Virus record (IMG/VR): IMGVR_UViG_2675903324_000010
Source: a virus
Taxonomy: Duplodnaviria > Heunggongvirae > Uroviricota > Caudoviricetes
Strand: one strand, 5' to 3'
Length of the DNA: 12,688 bases
This document shows positions 3,001-6,000 of this stretch, piece after piece. Position 1 is the stretch's first letter; every line of letters begins with the position of its first letter. Made by a program: the position numbers.

Positions 3001-6000
3001 AAATGCCTCAAGCGCAAATCGTTTTGGTCTGGTGAGAGGAGAGGGATTAAGCAAAGACTCGCGTTCCAGGCGTACTTTTTCGCGCTGGCGCTCAAGTATG
3101 GATAATGCGATTTCCTGTAATTCTTCATTTGTCATTGTCTGTACCCGTAAAGCGGTGCGCTGTAGTACCTCATATCACAGCGCAGGTATTTTTTATGGTT
3201 GTAATTTGCGTGATGATTCAGGTCACTTTGCGACACATTGCATAAACATAAATAACGTGATGTTATTATGTGCTTTCAAAGAAAACGCAGGTATTTTTCG
3301 CACAAACTTCTCTCGCAACACATCCGACCACTTAAGCAAAAAAGCGGCATATACTGAGGTTATCCCTTATAAAACGGGGATCGGGCGTAGGAACCCGTTT
3401 AATCAGTACAAGGCGACACAGGCGCGCCCAGCGTCTTTTTTTGTGTCATGCCATCGCGCAACCATACCCAGCGGCAAGGCCCGTACTGTATCTATGGTGG
3501 CGCTGGTGGGGCAGCCGAAAGGCTGGCCGGTTTCCTTGTACGCCGGTATTCCTACCCCCGCCAGCGTCACCGCCCTTTATGAGCGTAGGAACTCCAGCGG
3601 TGACTCCTTAAAACAGTACAAGGAGGCCTTTCACATGGCTGTATCCGCACGCCCTTACTTTGTCTGGCGCTTTATTGCCGTCGGCGCGTCAGAGCATCAA
3701 ATCATCCACGTAACCGCCTGGACGGAACTCGAAGCGCGTAACCGTTGCCCGTCAGGTTGCGTTGCTGTATTCGCCGCCCGTATCCGTCAGGAGGCATCAC
3801 ATGGATAAAAACATGTTGATCGCCTCTTCTTTCGGGCTGTATGATGCCGGAGTCGCCCACATGGCGACCGGGTTTAGCAGCCTGAATACTGTAGCGGACA
3901 GCCGCTTACATTCCGATATGCGGTTTTTTTGCGTCCGTAAACCTACCCATACCCGCATTATGGCGGGGCGTAACGGGGGAGCCTTTGCGCTCGCTGGTTC
4001 CTACAGTACCAGTCTGCTAACCCTGTTACGTCTCGCCACCCCGTTTAGCAGCGTAGTAGCGAGACTCCTTGAAATTACTGTAGGAGCCTTTCACATGGCT
4101 GTATCCGCACGCCCTTACTTTGTCTGGCGCTTTATGCAGTGCCTGACAGGCAGCATTGCAATATTCACCGTTACCGCTGCCACTGAGCGCGAAGCACGCG
4201 CCCAGCTGCCGCACGCACATCTGATTTTTGTCGCCCGTATCCGTCAGGAGGTGACTCATGCTTAAAACCTTCCGCGTCTTTTCCCGTGCCGTTAATGCAC
4301 GCGGCTATACCGTTGGTATCTCGCAGAACGTGAAGGCCGAAAACGTCCAAGCTGCAATCAGCACAGTAATTAACAAATCAGCTAAAGCCGGTTTATCCGG
4401 CGTAATTATCCACGCAGTGACATGTATTCAGGATGAGGAGTAATTCATGTGTGATTTTTCCGATATAACTGTTGATGAAGCAGCAAAAAGCGCAATGCAG
4501 GCAGAACTTATTTGTTCTCTGATGATGGGTAATACAGGTGAAATGACTGAGGGTGAGATTGAGTCATTGCTCGCCCTGATTAAGCAGCTTACAGGTAAGG
4601 CTGGTAGCTGGCTGATTGCTGCATCGGGTGATATGTAATAAGGGAAGAAATAACAGGATGAAATAAATACCAGAGAATTAAAACGTTACATATCAGGAAA
4701 TAAAACGATGAAACGTAAATATTCTGGCTTAACTGCCAGTAGCAAAACTCACCCCGAATTCATGCGCGGGGATATTTATCGCAATGAATACGGTAGCCAC
4801 ATGACGATGATCAGCAGAGGTAAGAAATGAAAAGCGCACCGAACTTAAAAAAACAGCCTCGAGGGAAAAAACACGCCGATACGGAAGTGATTATTTTCGC
4901 TGGCAGTGATGCGTGGGCGCACGCGAAACAGTGGCTGGAGCAGGACGGAAAACTTGCCGGAGATAATATACCGCCCGTCGTGCTGGCTGATGAGCAACTT
5001 AAAGATATTGGCAATCTGCAAATTGTACCCGACGGGCGCAAATCAGCGCGTATATACAAGGCCGGACACCTCGATCAGGTGATGGTCAAAGGCATAGGTC
5101 AGAAGCTGGCGGCGGCAGGCGTACAGGACGCAGACTATTACCCCGAAGGTATGCACCATAACGAGCGACAGAACTGGCGTAACTATCTGGAGACTGAGCG
5201 CAAAAACATTTCTGACGGGCTGGTTATTGAGCTGCCTGTAAAGAAAAAAACATCCGAACAATCAGAGGATGAATTAAAACCCCGCGTTGAATGCCGTCCT
5301 GATGGCGTTTACTGGGTTACGCCAAAGGTTGATAAGCAATCAGGCGAAATTATACGGCCTGAAACGTGGTTATGTGCTTCGGTTGAATTACTGGGCGCTG
5401 GTGTCATTGGTAACGAGCATTACCGCGTGATGCGCTGGACAGATTCGACAACAAATCGGCTTGTCACTATGGCCGTGCCTTGCTGCGGAATAGGCGACAG
5501 TGACGGCTGGCGGTTACTGAAAGCCAACGGGCTTAAAGTCACGACAAACGGAAAACACAGGATCCCCCTGGCTGACTGGATGCAGTTAGGCGGACAGCAT
5601 GAGGAATGGCACTTAAGCACGAAAGCTGGCTGGCACTTTGGCGCGTACATCATGCCGGACGGTACGGTTATCGGCGAATCTGACAAGCCCGTTTTGTTTA
5701 CCGGAAAAAGTGCTGCCATTAACGGTTATTCCGTGGCGGGTACGGCGGATAGCTGGCGCGACAGCGTGGCGCGGCTGGCTGGTGGTAATCCGTTCATGAT
5801 GCTGGGCATAGCGACGTCATTATCCGCGCCATTAGTCGGGCTGGTCGGTGCTGATGGCTTTGGTGTGCATTTTTTCGAAAACTCCACAGCAGGTAAGACC
5901 ACAACACAAAGCGTGGCATCGAGTTTATGGGGTGATCCTGAAGCGCAGCGATTAACCTGGTACGGAACAGCGTTAGGCATTGCTAACGAGGCTGAAGCAC

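Follow-up and report, generated by a model that had tools for sequence, protein, structure and literature searches.

Two C4-type antisense-RNA cassettes with Icd-like genes in series upstream of the primase gene of a probable P4-related satellite

The stretch of DNA analyzed here (the window, 12,688 nt of the IMG/VR virus record IMGVR_UViG_2675903324_000010) contains a tyrosine integrase gene (1-1254), an alpA gene (1798-2001), a poorly defined zone (2066-3260) and a region of two consecutive modules, each composed, in the same order, of a leader, a C4-type antisense RNA, a short spacer and an icd-like open reading frame (ORF). This double-cassette region is the subject of the present report; all features are on the plus strand unless stated otherwise, and modules of the same type as the second one are termed class 2. 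The icd-like frames, ORF A (3635..3808; 57 aa) and ORF B (4095..4265; 56 aa), match the NCBIfam model NF033153 (phage_ICD_like) with 61.8 and 53.4 bits, respectively, against a curated cut-off of 25 bits, and the two proteins are 55% identical. The near-identical 5' ends reported in an earlier reading of the sequence (the original prediction) belong to an exact 50-nt direct repeat (3626-3675 = 4086-4135) that includes the start codon, the spacer separating it from the Shine-Dalgarno (SD) sequence, and the first 13 codons of both ORFs. ORF A is thus a mosaic, with the first 13 codons of ORF B and a body of the class-1 type. The second unit as a whole is flanked by direct repeats, 50 nt exact and 41 nt at 80%.

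The stop codon of ORF A (3806-3808) overlaps an ATG at 3801 (ATGGATAA), and the stop codon of ORF B (4263-4265) overlaps an ATG at 4258 (ATGCTTAA); this ATGnnTAA overlap is unchanged in 14 of 14 class-2 variants. The original prediction placed a further ORF after each stop. Both overlaps exist, and the second one opens a 61-aa ORF (4258-4443), but the frame that starts within the end of ORF A is a long form of ORF B (3801..4265) and not an independent gene.

The proposal that the segments 3300-3630 and 3810-4090 encode C4/CI-type RNAs was borne out by the Rfam C4 model (RF01695, gathering threshold 45 bits), which gave two matches within 3200-4100, at 3490..3577 (C4-1, 81.3 bits) and 3956..4043 (C4-2, 71.7 bits). 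Both matches are full length, covering model positions 1-87 of 87. The minimum free energy (MFE) folds of the two RNAs (-51.5 and -45.0 kcal/mol, respectively) give the family structure, a long closing stem around two hairpins. This structure exposes two determinants, a hairpin loop of 11-12 nt (b') and a single-stranded linker of 7 nt (a'). The b' loop is UUUCCUUGUACG (3531-3542) in C4-1 and UUCCUACAGUA (3998-4008) in C4-2, and the a' linker is AUUCCUAC (3548-3555) and CUGCUAA (4014-4020), respectively. The mature C4 RNA of the known systems has a length of ~77-80 nt and is cut from a longer transcript, by RNase P at its 5' end.

Each C4 RNA is flanked by two copies of the sequences complementary to its determinants, one in the upstream leader (a1, b1) and the other in the leader of the icd-like ORF (a2, b2). 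The upstream leaders were assessed with the isrK model (RF01394, gathering threshold 50 bits) and the c4-a1b1 model (RF03163, gathering threshold 46.7 bits). Leader 1 (3362..3443), the equivalent of isrK, P4 seqA and P1 a1b1, has an isrK match of 51.8 bits at 3362-3441, inside which a permissive scan also found a c4-a1b1 match of 22.2 bits, below gathering. The loop of a hairpin holds its a1 segment (GTAGGAA, 3387-3393); b1 (GTACAAGG, 3406-3413) comes next, and a terminator-like hairpin (3420-3436) with a T-run behind it (3437-3443) is listed by the terminator scan. The target leader of ORF A (3585..3634) comprises a2 (GTAGGAA, 3585-3591), 8 nt after C4-1, an anti-SD/SD hairpin, and b2 (GTACAAGGAGG, 3616-3626), which covers the SD sequence AAGGAGG (3620-3626). 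The b2 segment GTACAAGGAGG pairs with the C4-1 b' loop by nine Watson-Crick and two G-U pairs. On the plus strand of the whole window GTAGGAA and GTACAAGG occur only twice each, the second copy of GTACAAGG being at 3616-3623.

The second module repeats this design with other letters. Leader 2 (3852..3930) is isrK- and a1b1-like and carries a1 (TTAGCAG, 3874-3880) in a hairpin loop, b1 (TACTGTAG, 3887-3894) and a hairpin weaker than that of leader 1 (CCGC, 3902-3905; GCGG, 3920-3923) with a run of seven T (3924-3930). The target leader of ORF B (4045..4094) contains a2 (TTAGCAG, 4045-4051), an anti-SD/SD hairpin, and b2 (TACTGTAGGAG, 4076-4086), part of an inverted repeat, which covers the SD sequence AGGAG (4082-4086) and pairs with the C4-2 b' loop by ten Watson-Crick pairs and one G-U pair. 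Both TTAGCAG and TACTGTAG are found twice on the plus strand of the window, flanking C4-2; the second copy of TACTGTAG is at 4076-4083.

A putative promoter precedes each leader. Promoter 2 (3816..3845; TTGATC, an 18-nt spacer, TATGAT) is the sole promoter-like site listed by the promoter scan in 3100-4500; it lies 7 nt before leader 2, and its predicted start (~3852) coincides with the 5' end of the isrK-like match. Promoter 1 (3326..3355), a putative constitutive promoter equivalent to P_LE of P4, has the -10 element TATACT (3350-3355) and a poor -35 element (CCGACC), and is absent from the scan list because of the latter. Its -10 element aligns with TATAGT of P4 and with TTGATC-18-TATGAT of most class-1 relatives and ends 7 nt before the leader, so that the predicted start (~3362) is the first base of the isrK match. 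The position 7 nt before the leader is conserved in class-1 and class-2 modules. A different promoter, TTGCAT at 3238 with TGTTAT at 3261, had been suggested to drive the unit. The letters and the 17-nt spacer are as described, but the site agrees with the consensus in 7 of 12 positions, is not listed by the scan and is not the homologous site; since the alignment with P4 and the relatives places the promoters 7 nt before each leader, this suggestion is not supported. The stretch around it has another feature. Two exact copies of the 13-nt sequence CGCAGGTATTTTT (3181-3193 and 3286-3298, 105 nt apart) flank the intergenic stretch with TTGCAT/TGTTAT and the ATG at 3260; by chance, 1.8 kb would contain ~0.02 repeats of this kind, and the repeat could be a candidate regulator binding site.

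The pairing between C4 loops and their targets was analyzed comparatively in 86 sequences, comprising the window, 80 IMG/VR loci, three genome loci and two E. coli loci that encode relatives of ORF A. A search of genome contigs with a profile of the Icd alignment gave only three loci (Shigella, E. albertii and E. ruysiae), so the set is essentially Escherichia. Two Icd-like matches per sequence are present in 27 of the 86 sequences and three in 9 of them, with a spacing of ~460-480 nt. C4 copies were located with Rfam and nhmmer and aligned using MAFFT and RNAalifold, and the loops were read from alignment columns. Two other procedures were abandoned: nhmmer searches seeded with the two C4 copies of the window, and then with 23 copies, recovered the family only in part, and Rfam coordinates were used instead; parsing of loops from single-sequence MFE folds was inconsistent and was replaced by the alignment columns.

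The C4 stems are conserved or co-varying, with double-sided changes in 12 of 24 consensus pairs among 27 relatives, and the b' and a' columns are hypervariable. The 40 distinct modules contain 18 b' loops and 8 a' linkers in 23 combinations. In these 40 modules every a' linker finds a perfectly complementary segment of 7 nt or more on each side of its own C4, directly downstream and ~70-80 nt upstream; with non-cognate flanks, a run of 7 nt was obtained in 0-0.1% of pairings. The mean run of b' is 8.3 nt with the cognate downstream and 7.3 nt with the cognate upstream segment versus 4.4 nt for non-cognate ones. The 14 class-2 modules are 92% identical, and their variation is limited to six patches, namely a1, b1, b', a', a2 and b2. 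In the alignment of these modules the loops can pair with a2/b2 in 98.4% of cells, with compensatory change in 8 of 18 pairs, and with a1/b1 in 97.1% of cells, with compensatory change in 8 of 15 pairs. None of 500 shuffles reached this in either case, and controls with slid target segments gave 29-46% and 13-40%, respectively. The slid controls retain the relatedness of the sequences, yet pairing collapses in them.

Loop and target patches that change in concert on a 92% identical backbone read as the signature of selection for function and not of decay. This bears on the possibility that unequal crossing-over produced the second cassette (3801-4265) as a duplicate that is now in decay, a pseudogene without a regulatory role. 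Such an origin would agree with the direct repeats around the second unit and with a related array, L002, in which the second icd is truncated to 44 codons. It would also agree with the PGAP annotation of the near-identical relative L001, where both stretches count as pseudogenes, this one as 'frameshifted Icd-like' and that of C4-1 as incomplete 'ash family'. However, C4-2 is full length at 71.7 bits; the promoter, leader hairpins, a1/b1, a2/b2, SD sequence and ORF B of module 2 are all intact; the six patches of the 14 variants co-change with 97-98% of pairing kept; and 140 complete E. coli genomes carry the cassette. We therefore favor two functional, independent locks over decay of the second cassette, which is very unlikely.

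The hairpins that pair each SD sequence with an upstream CTCCT(T) segment, a central point of the original prediction, are present: CTCCTT (3604-3609) with AAGGAG (3620-3625) before ORF A (-8.5 kcal/mol), and CTCCT (4065-4069) with AGGAG (4082-4086) before ORF B (-7.5 kcal/mol). They could in principle be the main control, as a translational attenuator or thermosensor acting on icd in cis, with the C4 RNAs playing a minor role at most. An anti-SD segment of the CUCC type is found in every module class, P4 included, and in class 1 it can pair with the SD sequence in 90% of cells versus 42-65% after sliding. On the other hand, the energies are ordinary. Relative to shuffled sequences the z-scores are -1.3 and -1.1, and 24 and 25 of 200 shuffles fold equally well. 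When pairs were counted within classes, changes in the anti-SD/SD helix were one-sided only, with no compensatory change. RNAalifold did not recover the helix from the icd leaders, as the module classes space the anti-SD segment differently. In the window the loop and 3' arm of each hairpin coincide with b2, the target of the C4 loop. This explains the pattern of conserved stems and differing loops that had been pointed out earlier, the variable loop being the 5' half of b2, which co-varies with the C4 loop. We give scarcely any credence to the hairpins as the main control; they are probably secondary, serving as a presentation scaffold for the antisense target or as a mild attenuator.

The likeness to P1, P7 and P4 that had been suggested as an analogy is a homology. 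The P4 immunity region yields the same Rfam triplet (isrK, 60.8 bits; c4-a1b1, 44.1 bits; C4, 74.9 bits) in the order seen in the window, and P4 Kil matches the same phage_ICD_like model as ORF A and ORF B, with 76.1 bits. In a three-way nucleotide alignment P4 and module 1 are close, with conserved stems, and differ in the a and b patches, which are GTGAGAA and TTCACAGG in P4 and GTAGGAA and GTACAAGG in module 1. The order promoter-seqA-CI-seqC-kil is found in the window together with an alpA-type gene upstream and a primase gene downstream. In contrast to P4, which has one cassette, the window has two in series with different specificities; its primase is of the DUF927 type, and no sid, delta or psu genes were found in the window. 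The P4 immunity system involves the Rho-dependent terminator t_imm and processing by RNase P and PNPase. The P1 record shows the same geometry as both modules (a1 of 7 nt, b1 of 8 nt, c4, a2 of 7 nt, b2 of 8 nt, icd, and a stop/ATG overlap), with a2 a few nucleotides after C4 and b2 over the ribosome-binding site of icd. P1 Icd and the Icd-like proteins of the window share ~41% identity over ~45 residues (tblastn). Heteroimmunity between P1 and P7 results from changed a and b letters. In P1 and P7 icd is followed by the antirepressor gene ant, whereas in the window another cassette and then small ORFs and the primase gene follow; and P1 c4 is under a C1 operator, of which no counterpart was seen in the window.

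The protein-coding frames show a further parallel. In P4 a 214-aa frame crosses isrK, c4-a1b1 and C4 and ends in the 65-aa Kil, and the window has two comparable long frames. Long form 1 (3260..3808), an eta-like 'Ash' plus Icd frame, begins at the in-frame ATG at 3260, the start of the 'ash family protein' of PGAP, and stays open back to 2066. Long form 2 (3801..4265, 154 aa) reads across promoter 2, leader 2 and C4-2, its last part being ORF B. In 39 of the 40 modules the Icd frame extends upstream across C4 and the leader without a stop codon, over 246 to 2109 nt, while the two other frames of those modules close within 12-276 nt; the single exception has a 1-nt deletion directly before the icd ATG. 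These predicted long forms resemble eta around kil in P4. In P4 eta as well as in the frame of the window, the RNA region is covered by the Pfam domain Phage_ASH (window: 70.9 bits, residues 429-521 of the frame from 2066, corresponding to nucleotides 3350-3628), and to judge from the sequences this domain is a translation of the isrK-C4 RNA region.

The entire open frame 2066..3808 (1743 nt) extends from directly after alpA to the stop codon of ORF A, and was considered as the coding sequence of a single Rha-Ash-Icd protein. Its N-terminal Rha match is below threshold (23.6 versus 29.9 bits), and it faces two minus-strand ORFs (2581-2892 and 2956-3135) that have paralogous C-termini (FALE.F..KYPRRL...KNR) and whose third codon positions coincide with its own. 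No family match was found on either strand of 2500-3250, where PGAP annotates nothing in the near-identical L001, and loci that lack the RNA (the L055 type, see below) have an open frame of equal length opposite a minus-strand gene that looks real. For these reasons, namely the sub-threshold Rha match, the third-position phase of the antisense ORFs and the L055-type precedent, we do not claim translation of 2066-3260.

Downstream of ORF B the 61-aa ORF is followed by a 63-aa ORF (4447-4638) and the DUF927 primase gene (4827-6968; Pfam DUF927, 143 bits; PHROG DNA primase, 495 bits); PHROG 3672 and 1478 are the matches for the small ORFs. Iterons lie 3' of the primase gene, followed by genes for a single-stranded DNA-binding protein (SSB), a ProQ/FinO-domain protein, PerC and a Q-type antiterminator. 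Related loci have the same gene order after icd, and a 97%-identical island in E. coli JNEC-KY208 adjoins a tRNA-Gly gene. A similar organization, with integrase, AlpA, a Bro/Rha-type zone with C4 and isrK matches, and a primase/SSB zone, is described for Gram-negative phage-inducible chromosomal islands (PICIs) and for P4 in Mageeney et al. 2023 (PMC10111431), where the C4 and isrK profiles are reported to match such islands. The element is very probably a P4-related or PICI-type integrative satellite, and the region, in which one complete cassette follows another, its immunity (self-repression) region. As a system it belongs to a known kind, the antisense-RNA immunity of P4 and P1 with its Icd/Kil gene. 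By analogy, the genes in 4258..6968, which comprise the 61-aa ORF, the 63-aa ORF and the primase gene, would be placed under the control of the cassettes.

Other islands place a different region before the same operon. L055 (1957-2460) and at least 19 further scanned loci have the icd - 61-aa - 63-aa - primase operon without C4 or isrK. Such loci contain a divergent minus-strand ORF that, by eye, resembles a ribbon-helix-helix repressor, and a promoter (TTGACG..TAACAT) embedded in the inverted repeat TGTGTTTCATG...CATGAAACACA. Here a protein-based cassette appears to take the place of the RNA-based one in the control of this operon.

Icd/Kil proteins are growth-inhibitory, as in P1 Icd and P4 Kil, and each C4-icd pair might accordingly be a type-I-like module of toxin and antisense antitoxin, or an abortive-infection trigger. 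The tandem would then represent two independent defense or addiction modules, from which Icd is freed when the RNA is lost or titrated. Yet the position of the cassettes is that of the immunity region in P4, immediately before the replication genes, to which they are translationally coupled, and an apparent protein repressor replaces the cassette before the same icd-primase operon in other islands, which argues that the cassette is an operon switch. We regard the toxin-antitoxin interpretation as unlikely as the primary one, although that role and an operon lock are not mutually exclusive.

Another interpretation follows from the leaders, which could act like IsrK of the Salmonella prophage Gifsy-1. 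A short terminated transcript would then be an activator in trans or a decoy, opening the long transcript or titrating C4, and the main output would be activation of the downstream genes, not repression. The isrK match with its terminator at 3362-3443 and the isrK-like copy at 3852-3930 are compatible with this, and in Gifsy-1, too, a terminator-bearing leader of the isrK family precedes a stable RNA, STnc1160, which in Salmonella arises by processing. PMC4825925 describes the IsrK mechanism and notes a possible CI analogue in STnc1160, which lies downstream of IsrK; PMC3632133 reports that S. Typhi requires IsrK-like elements of P4-like prophages according to transposon-directed insertion-site sequencing (TraDIS). 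The equivalences CI = C4 and seqA = isrK were already stated in these two papers and in PMC10111431. However, Gifsy-1 IsrK activates translation of orf45-anrP and is not associated with an Icd-like gene, and in the window the downstream genes differ, with no orf45/anrP-type genes. Moreover, a1/b1 of the leaders is complementary to the adjacent C4 RNA and not to the icd leader; the leaders are therefore C4 targets or decoys, consistent with repression. Action of the IsrK type is improbable as the main output.

We propose the following scheme for repression by the C4 RNAs. Each cassette would have its own constitutive promoter, a leader with a1/b1 and a hairpin with a U-run, a C4/CI RNA of ~88 nt, the a2/b2 targets and a small gene of the Icd/Kil type. 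As suggested by the genetics of P1 and P4, the leader transcript would be processed to the stable C4 RNA, which would pair with a2/b2, and also with a1/b1, on nascent transcripts and block translation of icd; the untranslated RNA would terminate early, and the primase and other replication genes would stay off. Since both determinants differ between the modules, each RNA should control its own icd only, and with one cassette behind the other the replication operon would be doubly locked. Immunity in trans would probably extend to related elements of two specificity classes. The Icd frame, open back through the RNA gene, would allow long 'Ash-Icd' forms like P4 eta, and the ATGnnTAA overlaps would join successive frames; thus, ribosome-loaded transcripts from upstream should cross both cassettes regardless of immunity. 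Forti et al. 1999, whose work is summarized in PMC10111431, are reported to have found in P4 that translation of eta through the region prevents immunity-dependent termination, and by analogy translation of the long forms may protect from termination here as well.

Several observations weigh against parts of this interpretation. Family membership, exact complementarity, co-variation among the relatives and homology with P4 and P1 come from the present analysis, and every mechanistic step past base-pairing potential is a transfer from P1 and P4. The cells counted for covariation are not independent events, as the comparators are closely related Escherichia and Shigella. In the window both matches of leader 2 are below gathering (isrK, 35.7 bits; c4-a1b1, 32.4 bits at 3839-3888), although homologous class-2 leaders at other loci reach 46.8-48.5 bits with c4-a1b1, above gathering. 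Module 1 has the poor -35 element and its promoter was missed by the scan; the SD hairpins are no stabler than shuffles and change on one side only; and the open frame upstream may partly be a shadow of the minus-strand genes. Some arrays are decaying, as in L002 with its shortened second icd. Finally, the b' loop of C4-2 contains, at 3998-4004, the heptamer UUCCUAC of the C4-1 a' linker (3549-3555). C4-2 could therefore pair with the GTAGGAA a1 and a2 segments of module 1 (3387-3393 and 3585-3591), and orthogonality of the two modules is perhaps incomplete. The closest relative, L001, has another b' loop in its second module, without this overlap.

The two modules of the window differ in both determinants (a, GTAGGAA versus TTAGCAG; b, GTACAAGG versus TACTGTAGG), and the same applies to the arrays with two C4 copies that were examined, where both a' and b' differ between the modules in 10 of 10 cases. 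Cognate a runs in these 10 tandem arrays are 7-8 nt and cross runs 3-6 nt long. In the loci examined, class-2 cassettes were seen in the second position only, preceded either by a class-1 cassette or by an icd gene located behind a divergent region of the protein-repressor type (L016, L060, L068 and L074). Of 5426 complete E. coli genomes, 140 contain the class-2 cassette, with 165 occurrences in total. E. coli 2013C-4974 (NZ_CP027587.1) has sequences 100% and 99.3% identical to modules 1 and 2 of the window, respectively.

The determinants re-assort between modules. Four class-2 b' loops are each found with both a' linkers CUGCUAA and CUGUCAA, and the class-1 a' linker UACGCCAA is found with three b' loops. 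Within a module a1/a'/a2 and b1/b'/b2 nevertheless always agree; given the layout a1-b1...b'-a'...a2-b2, a swap of one determinant needs three separate patches. Free re-assortment combined with always-matching triplets would imply strong diversifying and epistatic selection, or patch-wise conversion, driven by competition between co-resident islands. We speculate, as a possibility that falls somewhat short of being probable, that these are stackable orthogonal RNA-immunity cassettes with a two-site (a x b) code, in which the second-position class adds a replication lock and immunity to a second specificity class of satellites. Our literature search found no description of tandem C4 cassettes, of a second-position class or of a re-assorting a x b code, and the passages of PMC10111431 covered here describe neither tandem cassettes nor an a/b specificity code or its co-variation; the orthogonal tandem arrangement thus appears to be undescribed.

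The loci with three Icd-like matches (L010, L009, L051 and others, ~2111-2257) have an additional feature: of a truncated icd, only the 5' part (...LVHTQTAFVWRFLAL...) is present, fused to the conserved start of the next cassette (KKN.LIA), and the third match is weak. The break of the fusion lies after the FVWRF codons, that is, at the end of the 50-nt repeat shared by ORF A and ORF B in the window, which suggests a recombination hot spot for cassette insertion.

In RefSeq/PGAP annotation the isrK-C4 stretches (L001, 5061-5390 and 5602-6066; L002, 3554-4880) are incomplete 'ash family protein' or 'frameshifted/incomplete Icd-like' pseudogenes, and no RNA genes are annotated there. As far as can be read from their sequence, these stretches are intact antisense-RNA immunity cassettes predicted to gate satellite replication, and at least the 140-980 E. 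coli genomes with matches to these segments are affected by the systematic mis-annotation. As the switch is textbook knowledge from P1 and P4, the main value of the analysis lies in the correct identification. In addition, the 18 b' loops and 8 a' linkers, from a small sample, constitute a natural library of short orthogonal RNA repressor/target pairs, and the tandem non-matching pairs offer a tractable system for the evolution of heteroimmunity among related satellites in one host.

Some features outside the double-cassette region were also recorded. The int-alpA RNA (Rfam RF02996) has no match in the window; it is present between int and alpA in one related island (L033, 568-634; 55 bits). 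An iteron cluster (6994-7285) directly after the primase gene consists of TGGGACAAC repeated 3.7 times (7253-7285), its inverted copy GTTGTCCCA repeated twice (6994-7011), and a 21-mer containing TGGGACGAC repeated 3.5 times (7052-7124). This cluster is probably the replication origin, and an ORF that covers it (6869-7153) is probably spurious. Near the right end of the window are a lambdoid Q-type antiterminator gene (12017-12415; Pfam, 174 bits) and a gene for a PerC-family activator (8969-9259). The ProQ/FinO-domain protein (8542-9009; Pfam ProQ, 87 bits) is encoded on the same island 4.5 kb downstream of the C4/target region. Proteins of the ProQ/FinO family are RNA chaperones that act on structured antisense RNAs, and the island protein might assist the pairing of C4 with its targets.

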